Positions 1 to 48,302 of a stretch of DNA of 48,302 nucleotides are shown here, piece by piece. This stretch comes from a virus (taxonomy: Duplodnaviria; Heunggongvirae; Uroviricota; Caudoviricetes): IMG/VR virus record IMGVR_UViG_3300045988_153358, one strand, 5' to 3'. The notes beneath the pieces were generated by a model, which worked only from the letters and a program-made list of their open reading frames with translations, made no database searches and was not told the origin of the DNA. The position numbers were made by a program, and so were the translations under genes. How positions within the stretch are numbered: position 1 is the stretch's first letter; every line of letters begins with the position of its first letter.

Positions 1-119
1 GGGCGACTGGCGATTCTTTATTAGTGAGCCGGAAATTATTTCAGTTGAGGATTTACCTCCCGGCTGGGGATTACTTCACGTTGTTAACGGAAGAGTACGG
101 AAAGTACATGGATGGCCCA
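1..119. repeat. terminal direct repeat: bases 1-119 identical to 48184-48302; indicates circular or terminally redundant genome (likely assembly overlap)
   Basis: exact identity of the two window ends read directly. Confidence 0.9.
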
Positions 120-690: not shown

Positions 691-1031
691 GCTGTAGTGA
701 GAATCCATGCGATTACGAGCAGTATTCAGATATTCAGAGCGGGTAATGAAGCACATACAACCGAAAACATGGCAGAAACTGGACTCTATGGGAGCTAAGT
801 TGGAGAAGATTACTCAACTTAAGCAGTGGCATATCGGCGAATATTATGGAAGTCCTGGTCGGGATGTTCGGTTGGTAAAAAGTTGAACATTGTTTTTTTA
901 TTGATCGATTAACCACGATATGAAGGTTTTTTTTATGGAAAAACCTTGTTTTAGATGGTAACTGGGTGTAGTGTTTCATTTAACGTAGTAAAACTGCGTT
1001 AAGCGATTACCGCGTAATTTGTTGCTTTATG

Positions 1032-1063
1032 AAGCCCTGCCTTTTTCGGCGGGGCTTTTTTTT
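1032..1063 (+). terminator. Rho-independent terminator-like hairpin immediately upstream of the lysis genes
   Basis: 10-bp GC-rich stem AAGCCCTGCC/GGCGGGGCTT (one mismatch) followed by a T-run. Confidence 0.6.
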
Positions 1064-2559: not shown

Positions 2560-2683
2560 TACTGCCTGTGATTGGGTAAAGCCCATCTACCTGACTGATC
2601 ACGATATCGATGTTATGGACCGCCAGACAAAGAAAGATATTCTGGCTCATAACAGGGCATGGGAAATCAACTGCCCCAAGTAA
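2474..2683 (+). CDS. o-spanin (Rz1-like lipoprotein), overlaps the i-spanin in another frame
   Basis: signal peptide with lipobox-like LIASC; overlapping architecture typical of spanin pairs. Confidence 0.6.
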   Translation: MYSRVLTIWLMTMLIASCGSRGSVPVVVDTACDWVKPIYLTDHDIDVMDRQTKKDILAHNRAWEINCPK

Positions 2684-2852
2684 TATATATTTCTATAATT
2701 ATATAAATATATAGTTACAACATTCTATGCGCTTTTCTCATGGGCGCACGCATCAACCATGTTTGTCTGATATGCCGCCGCGCCCAAAAATCCTGAATTT
2801 ATTGGCTGGGATTTTCGTGCGCGGCGCCACACCAGACAAACAGATCAAATAT

Positions 2853-3236: not shown

Positions 3237-3824
3237 ATGGAGGCAATTGCATTGTTTAATCTGATTTATGCAGATCCCCCCTGGGAATACAAAGATAAGT
3301 GTAAGGATGGGAATCGTGGAGCTGGTTTTAAGTATCCAACGATGAAAGCTGAGGATATTGCTCGTATTCCTGTCTGGCAGCTTGCTAATCCTGAATCGTG
3401 TTTGTTGGCCATGTGGTGGGTTCCGACTCAGCCAGAAGAAGCGTTGCTGGTGGTGAAAGCATGGGGATTCAGGCTTATGACCATGAAGGGCTTCACATGG
3501 AACAAATGTGGTAGCCGACAACCAGATAAGCTGGTGATGGGGATGGGGCATATGACTCGTGCAAACAGTGAAGATTGCTTGTTTGCGGTAAAAGGCAAAT
3601 TGCCGACCCGCCTTGATGCGGGGATCATTCAGTCGTTTACATCGCCTCGTCTGGAGCATTCTCGGAAGCCTGATGTGGTTCGTGACAAGCTGGTAAGGCT
3701 GTTAGGTGATGTTCCTCGTATTGAGCTGTTTGCTCGCGGTGATTTACCTGATGGTTGGCATGGCTGGGGCAACCAGTGCAATGGAGGTATCCAGTTGCAT
3801 GATGCTCTCTGGCAAGTGGCATAG
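3237..3824 (+). CDS. MT-A70 family N6-adenine DNA methyltransferase
   Basis: DPPW catalytic motif (IYADPPWEY). Confidence 0.8.
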   Translation: MEAIALFNLIYADPPWEYKDKCKDGNRGAGFKYPTMKAEDIARIPVWQLANPESCLLAMWWVPTQPEEALLVVKAWGFRLMTMKGFTWNKCGSRQPDKLVMGMGHMTRANSEDCLFAVKGKLPTRLDAGIIQSFTSPRLEHSRKPDVVRDKLVRLLGDVPRIELFARGDLPDGWHGWGNQCNGGIQLHDALWQVA

Positions 3825-3936
3825 AATTATATAATTATAGATTTATATAAAAAGTGCTTTACAGGTGGGAAAAAATTTCCTATGGTTATACCCGAAACCG
3901 AGCGATACCCGCCCTGGTTAAACCGGAGATAACCCG
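3821..3936 (+). promoter_or_regulatory. promoter-leader cassette copy 1: AT-rich upstream element, TTTACA, 17-nt spacer, TATGGT, conserved leader with GGAG ribosome-binding site
   Basis: 118/119 identical to 35286-35404 and about 100 nt identical to 44816-44918. Confidence 0.7.
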
Positions 3937-4206
3937 ATGAAAGTACAAGACCGTGAAGTAGTAAAAAACCTCCTGCAATACCTGACCTCAAAAAACCTGA
4001 CGGGCAGCGTTGAGTTCCGTGAAGCGTTAAAACATTTCAACGTCACTACGGTTTATCGTTGGGAAAACAAACATTCTGAAAGACCGTATGTGGTGGATGT
4101 TTTTGCGCCTGATATTGAGTGCGGTTTTGAGCGCCATTCATTCAAAAAGAAACATTCCGCTGATGTTTTTTGTGAGGTTGTATGTGCGGCAGGAGATGAT
4201 GAGTGA
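3937..4206 (+). CDS. hypothetical protein (89 aa), first gene after cassette copy 1
   Basis: ORF track; conserved leader and ribosome-binding site. Confidence 0.6.
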   Translation: MKVQDREVVKNLLQYLTSKNLTGSVEFREALKHFNVTTVYRWENKHSERPYVVDVFAPDIECGFERHSFKKKHSADVFCEVVCAAGDDE

Positions 4207-4403
4207 TGCGTATTTCCTTCAAACGTGCGACTGAGCAGCAACGCAAAGAGTTCCTGGCTGATGATGTTGCGGCCGTTTATGACCTCATGAAAGAGGTTGT
4301 GGAATCAGGAAACTACACGGCGGCAAAGATGCTTAAACTGCAATTCTTGCTGGGCGACCTGAAATACAAATCCGAAGTTGTCGCCGGACGACGCGAGCAT
4401 TAA
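4203..4403 (+). CDS. hypothetical protein (66 aa)
   Basis: ORF track; start overlaps upstream stop. Confidence 0.5.
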   Translation: MMRISFKRATEQQRKEFLADDVAAVYDLMKEVVESGNYTAAKMLKLQFLLGDLKYKSEVVAGRREH

Positions 4404-4426
4404 ACCGTAACGATAACGAACAACGA

Positions 4427-4452
4427 GCCTCGGCAATTGCCGGGGCTTTTTT
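4427..4452 (+). terminator. Rho-independent terminator
   Basis: GCCTCGGC/GCCGGGGC stem then TTTTTT. Confidence 0.6.
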
Positions 4453-5291: not shown

Positions 5292-5299
5292 CTCTTACA

Positions 5300-5325
5300 G
5301 CCTCGCGGTGTCGCGGGGCTTTTTA
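5300..5325 (+). terminator. Rho-independent terminator
   Basis: GCCTCGCG/CGCGGGGC stem followed by TTTTT. Confidence 0.6.
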
Positions 5326-31685: not shown

Positions 31686-32155
31686 AAGATAATCATGTGA
31701 CCAATTATTGTAATAATTTTAATGGTATGTTTCTACTGGCTATCCAGCGTGTCTGATATCCAGTAACAAATCGTCAACACGGGTGCAATCAAATGGTGAG
31801 TGTTAAGACTGACCACTTATTACCAGGTATGAGTGGCCAGCATTAAATCAGAACAGCCCTTTAACTGAACTGGCCGCGCTGTTAAGGGATGATGTCACCT
31901 TATCTTTGAAGCCGGACAGCATATTGCTGAACGATGAGTTTACCGCAGGTTTCTGGCTGGGAATCATTGACTGGAGTTAGGCCAGTAGTATGATGCTCGC
32001 AAAACGAGATCCAATTTAGATCCTTTTACTGGTGGATTATCGTTCGATCAGTGAGAGACTTCGTGCATGACCGAAAGTGTTGTGGTAGAGTTCTCTTAAA
32101 ACCACGTAACGTGGTTATGATTGTGGGTGTCTGGTTGGAAAGTGACCAGATATGG

Positions 32156-32268
32156 AAACAAAAAGCCCGCAGATAAATCTGCGGGCTTCTTGCGACATCC
32201 ACGGAAAACCAACAATTAACCATGGGCGCCTCGACAACTCCCATTATACGTTGGTTTTCCGTGGACGC
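32156..32268 (-). ncRNA. candidate CopA-like antisense RNA region for repA control
   Basis: 16-bp perfect inverted repeat 32198-32213 / 32250-32265 with about 36-nt loop; 10-bp hairpin 32163-32188 followed on the minus strand by a U-run. Confidence 0.45.
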
Positions 32269-32280
32269 AAGAGCGAACAT

Positions 32281-33129
32281 ATGGATAGACCAATGCCGTC
32301 TCTACGTTCAGCTTACGTTTGTAATTTGTCGCCGGAGTTCCAGCGTCCAAAGCACCATACGCACAAGCTGCCGCTGGTGTTATCTGATGCTTTACAGCGC
32401 ATTAATGGGCGTGATCTTACGTGTGAGGTTGCGTTCTACGTTAATCAACCGTCAGAGCGGAAGCGCCGGATAAACGAGCATCGTCGTCGGGCGATTAATG
32501 CTGTGATCGCTGCGATTTTGCACCATGTAAACATCATTTCTAAGCGGGTTCTGGCTAGTGCTGAGGCGTTGGCTGATTTTTGCGGCCTGTCTACCGTATC
32601 CGAAGCTGGGAACAAGTCTATAACGCGCTGTACAAGGGCGTTGTCGCAACTGAAAGCGTTAGGTTTTATTGATTATGAACGTCGCTGGGATCGGGTGAAT
32701 AAACAGTATTGGCCAGCGAAAATAGAGATTCGTGATCAACTGCTGGAAACCGTTGGTATTACTGAACAAGCATGGAGACGTGCGGTTAGCCAGAAACTTA
32801 ATTACTTCAATGCGAAGAATAGCGAACGGCTTAAAAAAGCGATAACGGAGGCTGATTATAAGCGTATTGTTATTCAGGAGCAGATGGAGAATGTATGGCG
32901 TCAGAGGAAGACGGCCAGAGAGATAAAGGCAAAACAGAAAGCAGCGGAGAGAGCTGCGCGTCTTGTTCGGGAAAAGGGAGAGGCCGAACTTCGTCATCAA
33001 ATCACCAGAGAGGTTAGTCAGGAATTTGCTGATGGCATGTATCCTGGTGCTGACCTTGCATATTTACGATCCCTCGTTGAGCAGCGTTATAACAGGTTAA
33101 GAAAGACCTGGAAATCACTCCAACATTAA
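32281..33129 (+). CDS. repA: plasmid replication initiator RepA, IncFII RepA1-like
   Basis: central region (GLSTVSEAGNKSITRCTRALSQLKALGFIDYE) closely resembles R100/R1 RepA1; ORF extends upstream to 32152 but that stretch holds the stem-loops. Confidence 0.75.
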   Translation: MDRPMPSLRSAYVCNLSPEFQRPKHHTHKLPLVLSDALQRINGRDLTCEVAFYVNQPSERKRRINEHRRRAINAVIAAILHHVNIISKRVLASAEALADFCGLSTVSEAGNKSITRCTRALSQLKALGFIDYERRWDRVNKQYWPAKIEIRDQLLETVGITEQAWRRAVSQKLNYFNAKNSERLKKAITEADYKRIVIQEQMENVWRQRKTAREIKAKQKAAERAARLVREKGEAELRHQITREVSQEFADGMYPGADLAYLRSLVEQRYNRLRKTWKSLQH

Positions 33130-33400: not shown

Positions 33401-33772
33401 GTTCGCCCTTGCAGCGAGCTAAAGCTCGCGCCGGTTCGAGTCGCTACGCTCAAATATACCTCCTCCGGCACTTGCCGGAGGCATGGAGCAGCCTGATCAT
33501 CCTTTTCGAAACGGCACGTTTCGAACTATACAAAATCAATTTATATAAGGCCGAAATAAGGCCTACGGCCGGGCTTTGCAGGAGGAAGGGGCGAGCCTTA
33601 TCAATAAACGTCGATAAATACGCACACAGTAGCCATCAGAACGCGATAAAATGTAAGAAACATCATTTCCTATTAGACATAGAAAACTTGTCTTATACGC
33701 AATGTAGTAAATTTCTATTGCCACATAGGAAAAGATTTCCTACCATCGTAGATATAATAAATGGAGATGGTT

Positions 33773-34060
33773 ATGGATAAAGATACTGTTTTAAAAATGT
33801 TGAATCCGGCTTGTTTAAAAAAAGCGGATGAATGGGAATCTCCTACATGTGGAGAAGTTCGGGCAGTCATTGGCCTGACCGGAATGAGCGGCTCGCAGTT
33901 AGCCAAAAAACTAGGCTTAAAAGATAGTCGCAATGTTCGCAACTGGCAGATGTTAAAGGAGTCCACATCCAGATCCAGCATTCCGTATGCAGCCTGGGCG
34001 CTGCTGTGTTACTTCGCTGGGTTAGGGTTAATCTTCATTGATAACAAAACAGATGTTTGA
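33773..34060 (+). CDS. hypothetical HTH protein with C-terminal transmembrane helix (95 aa)
   Basis: HTH-like GMSGSQLAKKLGL, hydrophobic IPYAAWALLCYFAGLGLIFI; GGAG Shine-Dalgarno. Confidence 0.5.
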   Translation: MDKDTVLKMLNPACLKKADEWESPTCGEVRAVIGLTGMSGSQLAKKLGLKDSRNVRNWQMLKESTSRSSIPYAAWALLCYFAGLGLIFIDNKTDV

Positions 34061-35280: not shown

Positions 35281-35285
35281 CGCTC

Positions 35286-35401
35286 ATAGAATTATATAAT
35301 TATAGATTTATATAAAAAGTGCTTTACAGGTGGGAAAAAATTTCCTAAGGTTATACCCGAAACCGAGCGATACCCGCCCTGGTTAAACCGGAGATAACCC
35401 G
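35286..35401 (+). promoter_or_regulatory. promoter-leader cassette copy 2
   Basis: 118/119 identical to 3821-3939; the single mismatch is in the candidate -10 (TAAGGT versus TATGGT). Confidence 0.7.
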
Positions 35402-35782
35402 ATGAGCATGATTAAAATCCGCAAAAACGCTTTCCTTAAAATTCAAACTATCCTGGCTGGTTCTGTTGGCGTGATTTGCCGTTCTTCTTCAAGCCGCATC
35501 GATGACGGCTACGATGATGAGTATCGTTTGTCCTCGTGCGATGAGGCTTTAACCTGGCTGAAGGAGAATCAGGAACGTGCCCAGGTATATCTGGAAACAG
35601 AGAACGGCAATCAGATGCTCCGTATTAGCGGTCGTTATGGATTTGAAACCACATTCATGGCCTATTTTAATCAGGCTTACTTTGACAAGGAGTTGGCCTG
35701 GTACACTGATCGCATGAGCAAAAGCGAGCCAGCCCCGATTACACCGCCGAACGATAAACCATTTTTATTCCTCGTTAAGTAA
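35402..35782 (+). CDS. hypothetical protein (126 aa)
   Basis: ORF track; conserved leader and ribosome-binding site. Confidence 0.6.
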   Translation: MSMIKIRKNAFLKIQTILAGSVGVICRSSSSRIDDGYDDEYRLSSCDEALTWLKENQERAQVYLETENGNQMLRISGRYGFETTFMAYFNQAYFDKELAWYTDRMSKSEPAPITPPNDKPFLFLVK

Positions 35783-35790
35783 ACACAATG

Positions 35791-35817
35791 CGCAAAGTGT
35801 CAAAATGACACTTTGCG
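35791..35817. other. 12-bp perfect hairpin between convergent genes (possible bidirectional terminator)
   Basis: CGCAAAGTGTCA-AAA-TGACACTTTGCG; no clear U-run on either strand. Confidence 0.4.
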
Positions 35818-37494: not shown

Positions 37495-38694
37495 TTATGG
37501 TCTGCTCTTCTGTGCCAGCTTATCAGCACATGTTTTTATCAGATCCTGTAGTGTCCTGGCTGGCAGGTTTGCATCCAGTACGCTGAGTATGCTGTTGTGA
37601 TCTGCTTGGTCGACTACTTTGCCTGTCGGTGGTAGTAGCTTGAGCTGAGGATTCAGGTTTTCGTCAAAGCTGATAAGTGCTCTGGCGTTTCTGAGCAGAT
37701 CAAGAAGTAAGGCTGATATCACATTTTCCTGAGTCATTGCTGACAGATTTAGCGCCGCTTTGGTTTTCCCTGTTGCCTTGTCAAACTCCTTGATTAGTTC
37801 CTTCCTGTAGTTCGGTTCCGTTAATAGCCGATTATGCTCTGTTGCCGCGCGGATAATCGTTTTTTCCTGGTACAGTCGTTTAGCCAGATCACGCTCGTAC
37901 TGTGTTTTTAACACGCTGCTGATAGCGTTAAAGGCTTCAATGTAGGCCAGCTTGATATCTTTCACGCCTGGACCGTCGATACTTTCCATGAGCAAGGTAA
38001 ATCCGTCTTTTGTCATGCGATAGATTGTTATTTCGCGGTCGCTTCCTTCCAGCGGTCGTTGCTCTTTAAAGAAATGACGTGCCGCAGCTGTGCGAGGAAT
38101 GCGTAACGCATCGATGGCCATAACGATGGAATTGTTTGTGGTGCTGAATGCCTGGGCAACATCGGCTGAGGTTGTGAGTGGCTCGTTGTTGCACACCTTA
38201 ATGTAAAACATCGGTTTGGCGTTGAGCGTATCGACAACCTCACGAGCATTGTTTGGCGAGACGGTTACGGTCGCGGCCGTTTGTGTGTTCTGGCTGAAAT
38301 AGCAGTCTTCCAGCCGTTCGAACACATCCCAAGCCTGATCGGTTTCAAGCATTTTGGCGTGACGTGCAGCCCCGCGTTCTGTCCAGAGAATGAGGGAGCG
38401 GGCTTTCGGGGAAATTTGTAACCCTCTTAAAGATGGTTGCACATTTTGTGAGTTACTTAAAGTAACCCGCAAATTTTGTGAGTGACTTAAAGTCACTCGC
38501 AAAGTTTTTAACTCATCGCCAGCCACTTTGAAAAAATGCTTTCCTTCAATAAAGCGGTTTGCGTTACGTGAGTAATTTTTTTTGATGTTATCAACGTCTG
38601 TGCCGTATAGCTTTGCCAGTAGTTCAGTAGTGATAACGGGGATCTGGTTATGCAGGATAGGCTGTAGGGTGTTAACGGTCGGAAGCGTTTTCAT
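37495..38694 (-). CDS. antirepressor-like protein (ORF6N/KilA-type N-terminus, Rha-like C-terminal part)
   Basis: ITTELLAKLYGTDVDNIKKNYSRNANRF motif; downstream of a small overlapping ORF and structured RNA region. Confidence 0.65.
   Translation of the reverse strand: MKTLPTVNTLQPILHNQIPVITTELLAKLYGTDVDNIKKNYSRNANRFIEGKHFFKVAGDELKTLRVTLSHSQNLRVTLSNSQNVQPSLRGLQISPKARSLILWTERGAARHAKMLETDQAWDVFERLEDCYFSQNTQTAATVTVSPNNAREVVDTLNAKPMFYIKVCNNEPLTTSADVAQAFSTTNNSIVMAIDALRIPRTAAARHFFKEQRPLEGSDREITIYRMTKDGFTLLMESIDGPGVKDIKLAYIEAFNAISSVLKTQYERDLAKRLYQEKTIIRAATEHNRLLTEPNYRKELIKEFDKATGKTKAALNLSAMTQENVISALLLDLLRNARALISFDENLNPQLKLLPPTGKVVDQADHNSILSVLDANLPARTLQDLIKTCADKLAQKSRP
38443..38502. repeat. two tandem 30-bp dyad-symmetric repeats inside the antirepressor gene
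   Basis: ATTTTGTGAGTTACTTAAAGTAACCCGCAA then ATTTTGTGAGTGACTTAAAGTCACTCGCAA; arms GTTAC/GTAAC versus GTGAC/GTCAC. Confidence 0.8.
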
Positions 38695-38882: not shown

Positions 38883-39046
38883 TGTGATGATTCCCTTAAA
38901 GGTTAAGGATACTCACCACCGTCAGGTTCCAATCATTGGGTGGTGAGACGTGCAGGGTTGGAACTACCGGACACAATGACGAACCGGCGAGTCTTACGAC
39001 TCCCCCGCACGCCCCACCATAATTTGGGTGTAGCAGTGCTTTACGC

Positions 39047-39150
39047 ATAAAAAAACCGCTAACGCGGTATGCGCCATTGTGTCTACGGGGTTCCAATCCC
39101 GACCGTAGATTTTGCTACGGCTCGGAAAGTGTCCACCAATGGCGCATTCA
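39047..39150 (-). ncRNA. candidate c4-like antisense sRNA (5-prime end not determined)
   Basis: minus-strand hairpin ACCGC-GUUA-GCGGU plus U7 at 39049-39068; stem CCGUAG/CUACGG; GAUUGGAACC element repeated in the leader at 38925-38936 and complementary to 38954-38964. Confidence 0.35.
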
Positions 39151-39638
39151 TGTCAATACGGCGGGATTTTAACAGAGACAACCACATAGCGTGGGTTTAT
39201 TGGTAGGCAGAAACAAAAAAACCGCCCTATTGAGGACGGTTCTTTCGTGCTGATCGGATTCGCGGTCCTTTCAGCATAACGTCGTTGTATAAACAACCAC
39301 GCAAGCACAAGCAGCAAGTTAATTTTACCCAAAAGGTAATAATAGTCCACTATTATGCTTCAAAAAATTGTGGTTCTTGTTGTGCCTGCAAACTCACAGA
39401 TTGTGGGTAGGTTACTGATTTTGTGAAAATAAACGAGTTTTTTCGTTTAATTTCTTTCCTATTACTAATCTTAAAATAATCGTAAAATACCTGTGGACCT
39501 TCCCGCCGATTCGCACCCGGGCACCGACTTTAGGGGAGGATTCTCCGTTGCCGTACATGCAAGCACAAGCAGCCGTGCTTGCTCTCGCGTTGTTTTCGTC
39601 GGTGGGGATGCCGTGAAACGGCCTGTAAGGGCCATACA

Positions 39639-39761
39639 ATGAAAAAATACTGTATGTGTATTTTTATCGTTGTTACTGGGGCTTTGTTTACGCCACATGG
39701 GGAGGGTTGGAAGATTACTGATAACGCTCTGAATGTGACGATAAACATTAGCAGCAAGTAG
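39639..39761 (+). CDS. possible small hydrophobic peptide (40 aa)
   Basis: AAGGG Shine-Dalgarno 8 nt upstream; translation MKKYCMCIFIVVTGALFTPHGEGWKITDNALNVTINISSK; strong terminator follows. Confidence 0.3.
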   Translation: MKKYCMCIFIVVTGALFTPHGEGWKITDNALNVTINISSK

Positions 39762-39766
39762 CGATT

Positions 39767-39790
39767 AGGCCCCTTCGGGGGCCTTTTTTA
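39767..39790 (+). terminator. Rho-independent terminator with UUCG tetraloop
   Basis: AGGCCCC-TTCG-GGGGCCT followed by TTTTT. Confidence 0.75.
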
Positions 39791-40010: not shown

Positions 40011-40259
40011 TTACTTCTGGTTGTATTGAGCCTTGAGTAACTCAAAAGATTTTGTCAGCACTTCTTTCAATGACATATCCATTGAGCTGGCGAACGTTTT
40101 GTACTCGCGTTTAAATTCAGGGTCGACGTTAAACGCCATTTGTGCCCCACCTGATTTGGTTCTGGTTGGCGTTTCAGTCGGGTCGAAAACCTGCGGTTGT
40201 TCGATCGATGGCGGTACGCCTTTGCTGTTCTTCTTTGGTGGTTTTGATGGTCCGGCCAT
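40011..40259 (-). CDS. ParG-like ribbon-helix-helix partition/centromere-binding protein
   Basis: 82 aa; disordered basic N-terminus, C-terminal RHH-like segment; adjacent to ParA. Confidence 0.55.
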   Translation of the reverse strand: MAGPSKPPKKNSKGVPPSIEQPQVFDPTETPTRTKSGGAQMAFNVDPEFKREYKTFASSMDMSLKEVLTKSFELLKAQYNQK

Positions 40260-40302
40260 GTGTATCCCCTCTTATATAAATCTATAAATCTATAATTATA
40301 TA
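40260..40302. promoter_or_regulatory. AT-rich repeat motif between parA stop and parG start
   Basis: tandem TATAAATC units; same motif family as other intergenic sites. Confidence 0.5.
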
Positions 40303-40956
40303 TTACGCGGCAGTAGTCAGAGCCTCAAGCTGGTTGATAATCCCCTGAATAACGTCGTCTGCCTTTTTGCGTGGCGCAACGTATGAGCATTCAATGAGGC
40401 TTAAGCCCTTATCCTGAGCTTTGCTCAGAGCTGGCTTGTGGGGAATGTACTTATCGACAACAAAGTATGGCGTATTAGCCAGGTACTCTTGGGCTTCAAT
40501 GTAGTCGGCTTCGTTTTCAGCCGCGCCTGAGAACACCATGCAAATTTTCTTGATTGGCACACCCTTTTTAACGATGCCGTGAGCTGTGTTAACGGTGGTT
40601 TCTAGGTCATCGGTAGAGAATCTGGTTGGCAAAATAACCATATCCAGAAATTCAGAGAGCTTCGGTACTGATTCAGATGCGTAGGCACCGCCATCGACGA
40701 TAACCAGGTCGTATACTTCTGATTCGATGATTTTCTGGACTTGTGATGGCGTGCCGCACGGCTGCGCCGCGATTGCAGGTTCGATATTGTTGGCCATTCT
40801 GCGTTGTACCCAACGCGTTACCGTTCCGTTAAGCACATCCATATCGATCAGGCATACATTCCAGCCGGCCTTTGCATAAGCAACTGCTAAAGCACGGGCA
40901 ATTGTTGATTTGGTTACGCCGCCTTTTCCGTTGAAAATACCTACAGAGATAGTCAT
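40303..40956 (-). CDS. parA: ParA/MinD-type partition ATPase
   Basis: deviant Walker A GIFNGKGGVTKST; start at second ATG chosen because of GGAG Shine-Dalgarno. Confidence 0.8.
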   Translation of the reverse strand: MTISVGIFNGKGGVTKSTIARALAVAYAKAGWNVCLIDMDVLNGTVTRWVQRRMANNIEPAIAAQPCGTPSQVQKIIESEVYDLVIVDGGAYASESVPKLSEFLDMVILPTRFSTDDLETTVNTAHGIVKKGVPIKKICMVFSGAAENEADYIEAQEYLANTPYFVVDKYIPHKPALSKAQDKGLSLIECSYVAPRKKADDVIQGIINQLEALTTAA

Positions 40957-40974
40957 TTGTCGAGACTCCATGTG

Positions 40975-41080
40975 TTTGGTTATATAATTCTATAAATCTA
41001 TATTTATAGAACGAGGTAAGCATAACCAACTTTTTGGCGGATGAAAAGCGTTTTATATAATTATATAAATCTATAATCAT
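40975..41080. promoter_or_regulatory. parA upstream region with two further copies of the AT-rich motif
   Basis: 40981-41010 and 41053-41077 carry TATATAATT...TATAAATCTATA-type elements. Confidence 0.5.
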
Positions 41081-42230: not shown

Positions 42231-42404
42231 GTCTCATCAATCGTGAATGGTGGGTTATTTATACATTACCACATTTAGTGGTTTTCACATGGTAAGACGA
42301 GAGGTGGACCACAAATAGAAGGTTATTTTTTGTTTCGCCCATTGAAAAACTCACGATATGTGGTTTTAATACCACATATCGTGGTTTTGACTGGAGTTCG
42401 TTAA
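42231..42404. promoter_or_regulatory. cI-cro intergenic switch with three CCAC-N5-GTGG operator-like sites
   Basis: CCACATTTAGTGG 42269-42281, TCACGATATGTGG 42351-42363, CCACATATCGTGG 42372-42384. Confidence 0.6.
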
Positions 42405-44045: not shown

Positions 44046-44374
44046 GATATACCGGCTTTCGCAAACCAGCGACAAGGAAAAGCAAATACGGCAATAAAAA
44101 AACGGTTGTCGATGATATCGCTTTTGATAGCAAAAAAGAGGCTGATTACTACTGCGAACTGAAGCTACTGAGAAAAGCTGGCCGCGTTGTGACGTTTCTT
44201 ATGCAGGTGCCTTTTCATCTGCCAGGTGGTGTCGTTTATAAACTTGATTTCATGGTGTTTTATGACGATGGGACGATTGATTGTGTCGACACTAAAGGTG
44301 TGCGAACAGACGTCTACATCATGAAGAAAAAGCAGGTAGAGGCGCTTTATCCCGTCACGATACGGGAGATCTGA
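44042..44374 (+). CDS. DUF1064-like phage protein (110 aa)
   Basis: N-terminal KYGNKKT...DSKKEADYYCELKLL pattern recalled for this family. Confidence 0.5.
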   Translation: MRYTGFRKPATRKSKYGNKKTVVDDIAFDSKKEADYYCELKLLRKAGRVVTFLMQVPFHLPGGVVYKLDFMVFYDDGTIDCVDTKGVRTDVYIMKKKQVEALYPVTIREI

Positions 44375-44377
44375 ACA

Positions 44378-44755
44378 GTGAGACGCGATCTGGATAGCTT
44401 GTTTGAGCTATGGGCGCTGTGGGTGCGCAATGGCTGCAACGCCCGTAGCGGTTTCGCGTCGATGTTAGAAATGATGATGGTTACGCGCTGCCAGTTTACC
44501 GGAGGGGGCGGCGCACCAAATGACTCACTGGAAACCAGTATAGAGGGAGCGGTGACGGCCCTCACGGTAGTTGATGAGACTGCGGCGCTGGTTGTCCGAA
44601 TTGAATACGGGGCGTGGGAGATTCGGGGCCTCGACATAAATGCACCGCATATTGATAAAGCCCACGCCCTTTCTCTTAGCCTCAGACAGTATCGCCGGAA
44701 GCTGGCAAAAGCCAGGGCGTATGTTGTCGACTATTTGAAAAAGCGAAGAGAGTAA
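44378..44755 (+). CDS. putative late-gene regulator, antitermination Q-like (PF06530-type), GTG start
   Basis: LFELWALWVRNG and downstream pattern resemble recalled Q-like family; lies directly upstream of cassette copy 3. Confidence 0.45.
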   Translation: MRRDLDSLFELWALWVRNGCNARSGFASMLEMMMVTRCQFTGGGGAPNDSLETSIEGAVTALTVVDETAALVVRIEYGAWEIRGLDINAPHIDKAHALSLSLRQYRRKLAKARAYVVDYLKKRRE

Positions 44756-44807
44756 AAGTGTCATTTTGAGCTGTTTTGATGGTGTGTAGACATCGGGAAC
44801 ATCGAAA

Positions 44808-44924
44808 ATCTATAAATATATAATTATAGATTTATATAAAAAGTGCTTTACAGGTGGGAAAAAATTTCCTATGGTTATACCCGAAACCGAGCGATACCCG
44901 CCCTGGTTAAACCGGAGAAATCTG
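44808..44924 (+). promoter_or_regulatory. promoter-leader cassette copy 3
   Basis: about 100 nt identical to copies 1 and 2, diverging only in the last 6-7 nt before the ATG. Confidence 0.7.
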
Positions 44925-45992
44925 ATGAATAAACAAGTAATTATTTCTGACTGGATCAACAACCCTAACAGCCTGTTAAGCACTGATACTGGCTACCTAT
45001 TACGCCATGTTAATGGTCGTATGGTCAAAAGCGATGAGCACGAAACCTTTTTCTTTGTTGAAGACGATGGGCGTATCTATGAGGATGGTTACTCTTATGA
45101 AGCCCAAACTGGTTGTATCCCTGCGGAGCTGGTGGATGTAACAGAAGATCTGCGCAAAGCATGGCTTGAACAGCAGCAGCGCGGAGATGATTACGTAAAC
45201 ACCTATCAGGAACGCCAGAACGCGCGTCTTGCCCGATATATTGCTCGTGCAGAAAAAGCCAGAAAAGAAGGTGCGGTAGCGCATAAGCGAGCGCATGACC
45301 TGTTGGATGTGATCCCGTTAGGCCAGCCGATTTTAGTTGACCATTATAGCGCGAAAGGCCATCGCCGCCGTTTGTCTAAAGCTGATGCGTTATTCAGAAA
45401 AGCGTTTGTTGAATGCGAAAGTAAAGCATCACACTACGAGAGCAAAGCCGCAGGTGTTGGTCGTAATGGAATTTCGTCTGATGATCCTGATGCGCTATTT
45501 AAGTTGCTTCGTAAGCTGCAAGGCTGCATGAAGTCACACGTCAAAATGAAGGCCGCAAATAAGGCCATTCGCAAATACAAAAAAGACCAAATACAGCAGC
45601 TTTCTGCATTAATCGATCTCAGGTTTACAGAAAGCGAAGCCAAAGAGTTACTGGCCGGAGATTTCTGTGGGCGCATCGGATTCCCTTCATACGCACTGAG
45701 CAACAATAACGCCGAAATCAAACGACTACAGAGCCGTATTAAGGAGCTTGAATCGGTCAAGTCTGTAACAGGAGCACAGCGCGAAGAATACGACGGCTTT
45801 TCTATGGAGATAGATCCAGAGGATAACCGCATCCTGTTTTATTTCCCTGGCAAACCAGAGGCAAACATTCGTTCGCTGCTTAAATCACGCGCCTTTAAGT
45901 GGAGTCCAACCCGTAATGCATGGGTTCGCAAGATTACTCCAAACGCCCTGGCTGATGCCCGATATCTGAAAGAATCGCTATTGAAAGCCTGA
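44925..45992 (+). CDS. hypothetical protein (355 aa), first gene after cassette copy 3
   Basis: ATG at 44925 at the same leader position as the other copies; the track ORF start at 44871 lies inside the promoter. Confidence 0.6.
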   Translation: MNKQVIISDWINNPNSLLSTDTGYLLRHVNGRMVKSDEHETFFFVEDDGRIYEDGYSYEAQTGCIPAELVDVTEDLRKAWLEQQQRGDDYVNTYQERQNARLARYIARAEKARKEGAVAHKRAHDLLDVIPLGQPILVDHYSAKGHRRRLSKADALFRKAFVECESKASHYESKAAGVGRNGISSDDPDALFKLLRKLQGCMKSHVKMKAANKAIRKYKKDQIQQLSALIDLRFTESEAKELLAGDFCGRIGFPSYALSNNNAEIKRLQSRIKELESVKSVTGAQREEYDGFSMEIDPEDNRILFYFPGKPEANIRSLLKSRAFKWSPTRNAWVRKITPNALADARYLKESLLKA

Positions 45993-46069
45993 CAGTAAGC
46001 CTACGGCGGGATGTCTCCCGCCGTATATAGAATTATATATTTATATAAATGTATAAGGACGCCTCGACA

Positions 46070-46351
46070 ATGAAACGCAAAATTATTAACCCCCAAGATG
46101 TGATTAATTTCCTGACCGATCACCCATGTTCAAAAGTGGACGTAATCGCGGAGCACATTGGTGTGTCGCAGAACTCTATGCGTTGCAGACTGAGAAGCAT
46201 GGTTGCCGAAGGACAGATAACAACCAGGAAAATAAATGGTTGCCTGTACTACTCCGCTAAACCGGAATTGCCATTTGGCATGAATCCTAACTCCATGTTG
46301 TTTAACACCTTATTAGCCAAAGTTAAGCCGTTGAGAGGGGCTGTGGCATGA
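46070..46351 (+). CDS. hypothetical protein (93 aa), possible winged-helix DNA-binding
   Basis: internal ATG with AAGGA upstream; track start 46049 lies in the AT-rich motif. Confidence 0.45.
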   Translation: MKRKIINPQDVINFLTDHPCSKVDVIAEHIGVSQNSMRCRLRSMVAEGQITTRKINGCLYYSAKPELPFGMNPNSMLFNTLLAKVKPLRGAVA

Positions 46352-47953: not shown

Positions 47954-48302
47954 ATGGCGTTAACACACCGCGAACTCTGTCAGATTGCGTACAAGTTCCT
48001 TAAGCGCAACGGGTTCAAGGTTTGCTTTCATGACCGCTTTATAGCTGTAACCAGTACCGGAGAACAGCCAGATGCTATGGGATTCAGAAATTCAGCATCA
48101 TGCTTGATAGAGGCGAAGTGTTCTCGTGCTGACTTGTTGGCAGATAGAAAAAAGCGTTTCCGTAAAAATCCCTCACTTGGCATGGGCGACTGGCGATTCT
48201 TTATTAGTGAGCCGGAAATTATTTCAGTTGAGGATTTACCTCCCGGCTGGGGATTACTTCACGTTGTTAACGGAAGAGTACGGAAAGTACATGGATGGCC
48301 CA
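47954..48302 (+). CDS. 5-prime portion of wrap-around ORF (171 aa in total, continues at 2-286)
   Basis: ATG at 47954; no stop before window end; PD-x12-EAK motif. Confidence 0.45.
   Translation, partial: MALTHRELCQIAYKFLKRNGFKVCFHDRFIAVTSTGEQPDAMGFRNSASCLIEAKCSRADLLADRKKRFRKNPSLGMGDWRFFISEPEIISVEDLPPGWGLLHVVNGRVRKVHGWP

Follow-up and report, generated by a model that had tools for sequence, protein, structure and literature searches.

The closest described systems to the one considered here are the antiterminator of phage 21 (Q21 or QuuD; PF06530; structures 6JNX and 6P18-6P1C), the lambda Q/PR'/qut/tR' switch, and the Aca autorepressors. The long loop of the Q21 HT[loop]H motif enters the DNA minor groove (10.1101/651190), the H2/loop region of Q21 forms a ring inside the RNA exit channel (PMC6606751), and the Q-binding elements (QBEs) of both Q21 and lambda are positioned in the promoter spacer (PMC6606751). 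Among autorepressors, the helix-turn-helix (HTH) domain of AcrIF24 binds an inverted repeat in the promoter of its own operon and represses it (PMC9638941; PMC9001735), and Aca proteins also control other anti-defense operons, several at once, with Aca1 and Aca2 binding hairpins in 5' untranslated regions (PMC13551039). Here, we describe a 125-amino-acid (aa) Q-like protein and three near-identical promoter cassettes, the third of which follows the Q-like gene, in a 48,302-nucleotide (nt) caudoviricete sequence (IMG/VR record IMGVR_UViG_3300045988_153358; hereafter, the window). The original prediction was that the protein resembles PF06530 antiterminators and that the cassettes are its loading sites. 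Our analyses indicate that the protein represents a branch of the Q21 superfamily that lacks annotation, is trimmed in structure, is encoded by a phage-plasmid, and is not accompanied by a canonical adjacent qut site. The cassettes are most likely accessory-gene units controlled by an Aca-type repressor rather than Q-loading late promoters. We give about an even chance (a probability of roughly 0.5) to the combined reading, in which a late antiterminator of the Q21 superfamily operates alongside separate cassettes that are controlled by Aca-like and ParG-like proteins and are read through by late transcription.

The Q-like gene is preceded by a Shine-Dalgarno (SD) sequence (GGGAGA, 8 nt upstream) and by the stop codon of the previous gene (44372-44374). 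Its product has 31 close homologs of equal length, none of which is named, and is placed by PHROGs in phrog_5285, labelled 'unknown'. Searched against 1.8 billion proteins, a profile of these 31 homologs recovered 130 cluster representatives (E <= 1e-3), of which nearly all are 110-160 aa in length and align end to end. A search of the PDB with the 125-aa sequence alone returned nothing, and the close-family profile returned only a weak match to the Tc3 HTH. A profile of 111 diverse relatives, on the other hand, matched the phage 21 Q chains (6JNX/6P18) with an E-value of 5.6e-5, where the runner-up had an E-value of 0.18; the match pairs profile positions 4-89 with Q21 residues 11-93. Comparison by hhalign with a QuuD-type alignment, every member of which is annotated as PF06530, yielded a probability of 86% (P = 5e-6) over 113 collinear columns that run from an L-E-x-W-x-x-W helix to the C-terminal HTH. 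An AlphaFold model built on a deep alignment (predicted local distance difference test score of 87) shows helices like those of sigma region 4 (R4) packed on a helix from the N-terminus, together with a mobile H2/loop segment, and Foldseek comparison of this model with the PDB ranked four Q21 entries at the top (probability of 0.77-0.94).

The most conserved columns of the family are not those of the recognition helix but those of the N-terminal W-x-x-W helix and of a flexible segment, G-F-x-S-M-L-x-M-M...Q-F-x-G-G-G-G-x-P-x-D, which may correspond to the ring-forming H2/loop of Q21. Sequence and predicted fold place the 125-aa protein in the Q21/QuuD superfamily as a distant member, one that falls outside PF06530 as currently defined. 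It shares with Q21 a full-length collinear profile, the L-E-x-W-x-x-W helix, a flexible middle, and a four-helix R4-like domain, as well as a gene that is last in an early-right operon and terminators that precede lysis and late genes. It differs in scoring below the Pfam threshold, in length (125 versus 162 aa), in a short HTH turn, and in an invariant Gly-rich QF-GGGG-P-D motif. Moreover, most relatives of the Q-like gene have no PR'/QBE/pause/terminator unit directly after the gene, and no direct-repeat QBE was identified.

A second relationship is to the PA0613 family (NF051483), which aligns with the 125-aa protein over its full length (21.3 bits, E = 2.5e-4) and is matched weakly by 58 of the 111 relatives (best E-value of 6.7e-9). 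Since the score is far under the family cut-off of 100 bits, the Q-like family is a sister of the PA0613 family rather than a member of it. PA0613 is similar in size and lies between ptrB and the holin of the Pseudomonas aeruginosa R/F-pyocin cluster; like the Q-like gene, it is located just upstream of lysis and tail genes. No function of PA0613 was described in the literature searched. P1 Lpa was also considered, in view of the P1-like c4/ant and Ref genes of the phage, and is unrelated (hhalign probability of 0.1%).

In every relative examined, the Q-like gene is the final member of a conserved early-right block (genes for 164-, 171-, and 77-aa proteins, a Ref-like nuclease, in some cases DUF1064, and the Q-like protein), with variable content downstream; in Vibrio phages it sits mid-operon and its stop codon is overlapped by the next gene. 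Three strong intrinsic terminators in the window directly precede late genes (Table 1), and strong terminators are likewise found just before the holin genes of related phages. Those of the window abut the starts of late genes without room for a promoter, so that late genes can be expressed only by read-through. The analysis turned up no other antiterminator candidate, and neither a put/nut-like RNA nor a family corresponding to the cassette was found in Rfam. The need for read-through, combined with the lack of another candidate, is the main functional argument that the Q-like protein would act as an antiterminator.

The conserved block upstream of the holin terminator (Table 1) is a candidate for the true late regulatory site. 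Its flanks are only about 70-88% identical among the three sequences in which the block itself is invariant, and about 340 nt of non-coding DNA lie upstream of the terminator. The block includes a promoter-like TTGTTT-17-TAGTGT and an 8-bp-stem hairpin (982-1000), and block and terminator together are predicted to fold with z = -4.9. In layout, the 945-1066 region, with the block and a terminator right before the holin gene, is similar to lambda PR'-tR', and the lambda switch likewise draws its regulator from an early operon and has terminators before lysis genes. Unlike in lambda, the promoter-like site of the block is weak when judged by consensus, and the regulator is separated from the junction of terminator and holin gene by about 4.3 kb of accessory genes.

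Table 1. Coordinates of the Q-like gene, the cassettes, and associated features in the window.
Feature	Position	Strand	Details
Q-like gene	44378..44755	+	GTG start, 125 aa, in the program-made list of open reading frames
Intrinsic terminator before holin gene	1031..1058	+	11-bp stem, T9; ends 12 nt before holin ATG (1078); no promoter between
Intrinsic terminator after cassette-1 genes	4425..4448	+	directly before SD and ATG 4478
Intrinsic terminator before head/terminase genes	5299..5320	+	directly before ATG 5341
Conserved block, candidate late regulatory site	945..1003	+	59 nt, invariant among L010, L011, and the window
Cassette copy 1 (array, dyad promoter, leader)	3820..3940	+	followed by 3937-4206 (89 aa), 4203-4403 (66 aa), and terminator 4425-4448
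Cassette copy 2	35285..35405	+	followed by 35402-35782 (126 aa), a 12-bp-stem hairpin (35791-35817), and convergent genes
AT-rich array of copy 3	44805..44844		upstream part of copy 3; four 8-bp units: ATCTATAA ATATATAA TTATAGAT TTATATAA
Sigma-70-type promoter of copy 3	44847..44875	+	-35 TTTACA (44847-52), 17-nt spacer, -10 TATGGT (44870-75)
Putative operator dyad of copy 3	44855..44871		17 bp, TGGGAAA-AAA-TTTCCTA; in promoter spacer, overlaps -10
Leader hairpin of copy 3	44885..44908	+	AACC..GC / GC..GGTT, 6 consensus pairs; within ~45-nt leader
DUF3560 gene	44925..45992	+	355 aa, first gene behind cassette 3; SD GGAG (44914-17)
Fourth dyad promoter	33718..33746	+	TTGCCA-17-TACCAT; dyad TAGGAAAAGATTTCCTA (33726-33742); no AT array, no leader hairpin
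HTH gene, candidate dyad-binding autorepressor	33773..34060	+	95 aa; homologous to AcrIF24 DNA-binding domain and Aca3
Partition module	40011..40971	-	ParA-like ATPase (40303-40971), 82-aa protein (40011-40259); flanked by arrays 40272-40305, 40980-41011, and 41051-41080

The three cassette copies are each 121 nt in length, with copies 2 and 3 being 99% and 90% identical, respectively, to copy 1. Copy 3 (44809-44929) begins 53 nt after the stop codon of the Q-like gene, its AT-rich part starting at 44805, which confirms that the 125-aa open reading frame ends some 50 bp before the cassette, as had been proposed. Each copy joins an AT-rich array, a promoter with a dyad, and a leader, and no terminator separates the cassette promoter from the first gene. 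A longer open reading frame starting at 44871 was rejected as the true start of the DUF3560 gene. The only substitution in the promoter core among the three copies is in the -10 element of copy 2, which reads TAAGGT in place of TATGGT (35331-35352). The '-22' late promoters of P1 (AACAAATGACTA-N4-TAGAAT) differ from the cassette promoter.

Covariation supports the leader hairpin: of its six pairs, three show double changes and none is broken in 18 sequences, although these represent only about three independent lineages, and G-U variants occur within group B. No consistent -10-like, sigma-dependent pause element was found in the leaders. Hexamers resembling xAxAxT are present in some copies (GATAGT, CATAGT), whereas others have GATACC or CACAAC instead; they were not accepted because they are inconsistent among copies and located in the hairpin loop. 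In groups B and C, the sequence just after the -10 element is complementary to the SD region (e.g., L013 1655-1715; L014, L020; L019 4950-5002), with covarying pairs such as TTCAT/ATGAA with CCTCAT/ATGAGG, and TTATCTC/GAGATAA. The extended stem would sequester the SD only in transcripts begun upstream of the predicted start site.

The lineage-specific dyad pattern TAGGnnn-W3-nnnCCTA occurs at four sites in the window, compared to 0.22 expected. The fourth site lies in a promoter 27 nt before the 95-aa HTH gene, labelled 'hypothetical' by PGAP. The product of this gene aligns with AcrIF24 in its HTH 'body' domain (E = 1.4e-5 for the single sequence and 1.9e-6 for a six-sequence profile) and with Aca3 (E = 0.016). 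Searches by tblastn identified homologs of the 95-aa protein only in loci with dyad cassettes, namely the window, L010, all five group-B loci, and L019; none was identified in L016, L017, L021, L025-L029, or Vibrio phages, even where the RepA-ParA region was covered. In L010 and L019 the homolog has its own dyad promoter, whereas in group B it is inside a cassette-driven operon. Because the same dyad is found in the repressor's own promoter and the two co-occur perfectly across lineages, the dyad is most likely, judging from sequence, the operator of the 95-aa Aca-like repressor. The window resembles Aca systems in HTH homology, in an inverted repeat inside a strong promoter that overlaps the -10 element, in the combination of one operator on the repressor's own promoter with several operons of small genes, and in a 5' leader hairpin as in acr-aca1 and acr-aca2 leaders. 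It differs in that no known anti-CRISPR or other anti-defense gene was recognized behind the cassettes and in that the repeated unit is a near-identical 121 nt with an AT array. A MarR/FaeA-like gene (46049-46351) was rejected as the dyad binder since groups B and C lack it.

Multi-copy cassettes of 110-128 nt are present in related phages as well, with the architecture kept and the sequence different. In group B, where the Q-like protein is 59-65% identical, the dyad is TAGGACT-AAA-AGTCCTA; in group C (50% identical) it is TAGGTC-AAAAA-GACCTA. Across these lineages, the -35 element retains TTG and the -10 element retains TAnnnT. A covariance model of the leader detected cassettes in groups A, B, and C only, whereas Q-like genes are present in all lineages examined; the model detected none at less than 10 kb from the Q-like gene in Vibrio phages or in at least seven other lineages, and no dyad is present at that distance in the latter. 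Full cassettes in group B are located 7-8 kb upstream of Q before three or four small tandem genes; downstream of Q there is just an AT-rich array, and no cassette follows Q or precedes late genes within 10 kb. One or two genes are situated between Q and the cassette in L010, L011, and L019.

The AT-rich part of the cassette is not confined to the cassettes. Eight arrays of 8-bp AT-rich units were identified in the window (2678-2717, 3821-3855, 35286-35320, 40272-40305, 40980-41011, 41051-41080, 44805-44844, and 46024-46056), and each lineage has dispersed arrays in comparable places with a unit of its own, namely GATATAAA in group B, TTAAAGAA in group C, TAAATAAT in L016, L017, L026, and L028, and AACGAAWT in L021. 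Type Ib partition systems, such as ParF/ParG of TP228 and delta/omega of pSM19035, rely on small ribbon-helix-helix (RHH) centromere-binding proteins, and the phage-plasmid N15 has dispersed SopB sites that act as centromeres. The window is similar in that a ParA-like ATPase, with clear domain matches, is followed by an 82-aa protein, and in that short tandem arrays are found at the par genes and upstream of other promoters. In all lineages the 82-aa partner is kept beside parA. It matched no family in Pfam or NCBIfam and no named PHROG; its C-terminus has a strand-helix-helix pattern that is ParG/omega- or RHH-like by eye only, and the RHH assignment thus differs from that of type Ib proteins in being by pattern only. 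Since arrays flank the parA and ParG-like genes, the partition protein is the simpler candidate for their binder, and the simplest idea is that the arrays would be the centromere or operator of the partition protein, putatively the ParG-like 82-aa protein. In four related lineages, an array lies directly against a strong terminator before lysis genes (L014 17990-18045, L016 15370-15425, L017 16298-16340, and L026 15872-15925).

The model that we favor builds on the homologies, cassette anatomy, distributions, and terminator positions given above; antitermination activity, the binder of each site, and the timing of expression are its predicted components. The Q-like protein would be made as the last conserved gene product of the early-right operon and is predicted to begin with a W-x-x-W helix, followed by a flexible, highly conserved segment rich in Gly and by an R4-like DNA-binding domain of four helices. 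It would render RNA polymerase resistant to the terminator before the holin gene and to the two before other late genes. The cassette would be a separate portable unit, consisting of an AT array, a near-consensus sigma-70 promoter with a dyad, and, ahead of the SD and ATG, a leader of some 45 nt with a conserved hairpin. The arrays would probably be bound by the small ParG-like protein, and the 95-aa HTH protein would repress via the dyad, including at its own promoter. The cassettes would thereby form a small regulon of accessory, possibly anti-defense, genes that are strongly promoted and then auto-repressed. Each unit of promoter, gene(s), and terminator would be inserted in the phage backbone, and Q-type antitermination would carry late transcription through it.

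Several observations weigh against this model. When searched alone at E <= 1, the 125-aa protein matched neither PF06530, PF03589 (lambda Q), PF06323 (Q82), nor any sigma model, with an irrelevant EIIA-man signal (E = 0.079) the sole return from Pfam; QuuD, as a control, scored 3.5e-53 with the PF06530 hidden Markov model. Individual relatives among the 111 did match (PF06530 in 10 at E <= 0.01, Sigma70_ECF in six, Sigma70_r4_2 in five), and the resemblance to PF06530 claimed in the original prediction holds for the family, by profile and hhalign, and by fold, and not for the single sequence in Pfam. The Foldseek E-values for the Q21 entries are about 0.3, the predicted fold is equally near that of a plain extracytoplasmic function (ECF) sigma R4, and the HTH helices (91-97 and 102-124) are joined by a 4-residue turn without the long loop of the Q21 HT[loop]H. 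With regard to the sites, no Q loading site was identified in the window, the Aca-like gene and the dyad are linked by their joint presence in no more than three lineages, and the cassette-driven genes (DUF3560 and the 89-, 66-, and 126-aa proteins, or those of 86-191 aa in group B) have no function in Pfam or PHROGs. The dyad also spans positions of approximately -27 to -11, which is where the QBE subsites of Q21 (-21 and -13) and the lambda QBE lie. Finally, co-variation cannot separate the candidate DNA binders because all proteins co-diverge among lineages.

The position of the dyad bears on the claim that the cassettes are Q-loading late promoters. Under that claim, the Q-like protein would bind the dyad as its QBE, engage RNA polymerase as it leaves each cassette promoter, and render it resistant to terminators; lysis and structural genes would be transcribed from copies 3 and 1, and every gene behind a copy would be a late gene. 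The short distance between the Q-like gene and copy 3, promoters that are near consensus as expected for a constitutive PR', terminators downstream of copies 3 and 1 ahead of late genes, and recognition helices that differ (SLRQYRRKL in lineage A versus SLRTYKRKL in B/C) as the dyads do are all consistent with such a role. The distribution argues otherwise: Q-like genes occur without a cassette or dyad in the seven or more lineages noted above and mid-operon in Vibrio phages, the cassettes of group B are remote from Q and none precedes late genes, other genes intervene in L010, L011, and L019, and the dyad tracks the Aca-like gene. Furthermore, the dyad is an inverted repeat, whereas the QBE of Q21 is a direct repeat, and copy 2 faces convergent genes. 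Of the proposed lambdoid arrangement of Q, late promoter, and qut, the window shows the position of Q and a promoter with an element at the QBE position; that element is an inverted repeat, neither a consistent pause element nor a terminator before the first gene is seen, and the adjacency is not conserved in relatives. Based on the distribution, the placement in group B, and the co-occurrence of dyad and Aca-like gene, we consider Q loading at the cassettes to be probably wrong and rate it as distinctly unlikely. The proximity to plain ECF sigma R4 raises another explanation, that the 125-aa protein is an R4-like activator or repressor, or appropriates RNA polymerase, rather than being an antiterminator, for example by acting at the AT arrays; in some relatives, 8-bp-period arrays do stand in for the -35 element ahead of -10-like hexamers. 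Yet homology to Q21/QuuD covers the N-terminal half, which is absent from sigma R4, the partition protein is the simpler array binder, the cassette promoters of the window already have a good -35 element, and terminators that abut late genes call for antitermination. We regard this explanation as unlikely, if somewhat less so than Q loading. That the similarity to Q21 is merely chance between helical HTH proteins, making the protein an ordinary small regulator, would account for the lack of a direct Pfam match, the modest E-value of the PDB profile search, and an hhalign probability of 86% rather than more than 95%. It would not account for the finding that three independent approaches, namely a sequence profile, a profile-profile comparison, and two structure searches, each rank Q21 as the top or longest-aligned match, nor for an alignment that is collinear over its full length and includes the W-x-x-W motif, and chance similarity is thus highly improbable. 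We therefore retain the model of a Q21-superfamily antiterminator with separate accessory cassettes.

An exact 119-nt repeat at the ends of the window (1-119 = 48184-48302) indicates that it is a single, complete genome, either circular or with terminal redundancy, of about 48,183 bp. Its identity to Yersinia phages vB_YpM_39/41/44, the annotation of which is almost entirely 'hypothetical', is 99%, and E. coli plasmids of 47-49 kb, such as pECO-b75, are 100% identical over the query. Among 5,426 complete E. coli genomes, 74 carry the element, with 215 of 218 places plasmid-borne and a median of three places per genome, corresponding to the three cassettes. A scan of species-representative genomes returned a single locus, and the alignment of distant relatives was too diverse to fish for loci. 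Genes were identified for an IncFII-type RepA (32152-33129), the ParA-like ATPase, a CI-like repressor, a P1-type c4/isrK RNA with an anti-repressor, a HigBA-like pair, and Ref proteins, together with late genes for holins, endolysin, terminase, an HK97-type head, and a contractile Mu-like tail. The combination of RepA, ParA, a repressor, and structural and lysis genes identifies the window as a phage-plasmid of about 48 kb.

Additional regulatory features were observed outside of the cassettes. By Rfam, C4 antisense RNA and isrK (38936-39121, minus strand) lie upstream of the gene for the 399-aa anti-repressor (37495-38694, minus strand), forming a P1-type immI module, and a ryfA RNA at 39493-39789 (plus strand) is a full-length match (141.8 bits). 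Large palindromes (42282-42384) separate the CI-like gene from the first early gene: ATGTGGT-N6-ACCACAT sits inside a 14-bp-stem inverted repeat (42351-42384), and ACCAC-N5-GTGGT is at 42282. These are probable CI/Cro operators and resemble neither the dyad nor the AT arrays; a half-site related to them, AACCACGATATG, is found at approximately 913-924.

Each component of the proposed system fits an existing paradigm. The cassettes show that a Q-like gene beside a strong promoter is insufficient to call a Q loading site, and they may serve as a signpost, since a near-identical operator-promoter-leader marks small genes under an Aca-like repressor, an approach by which new anti-defense genes have been found elsewhere. 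If the 125-aa protein is an antiterminator, then a family labelled 'hypothetical' everywhere, ranging from E. coli plasmids and phages that infect Yersinia pestis to Vibrio phages and relatives of the pyocin gene PA0613, would become the named late switch of this phage-plasmid group. A more speculative and distinctly unlikely proposition is that Q-type antiterminators have an unrecognized fourth branch, made up of the 125-aa protein and the PA0613 family and acting on the late genes of phage-plasmids, Vibrio phages, and the R/F-pyocin cluster. The sister relationship of the two families suggests that PA0613 may be a late-gene antiterminator of the pyocins, and an antiterminator role for the 125-aa protein would provide a concrete candidate for read-through into pyocin late genes.

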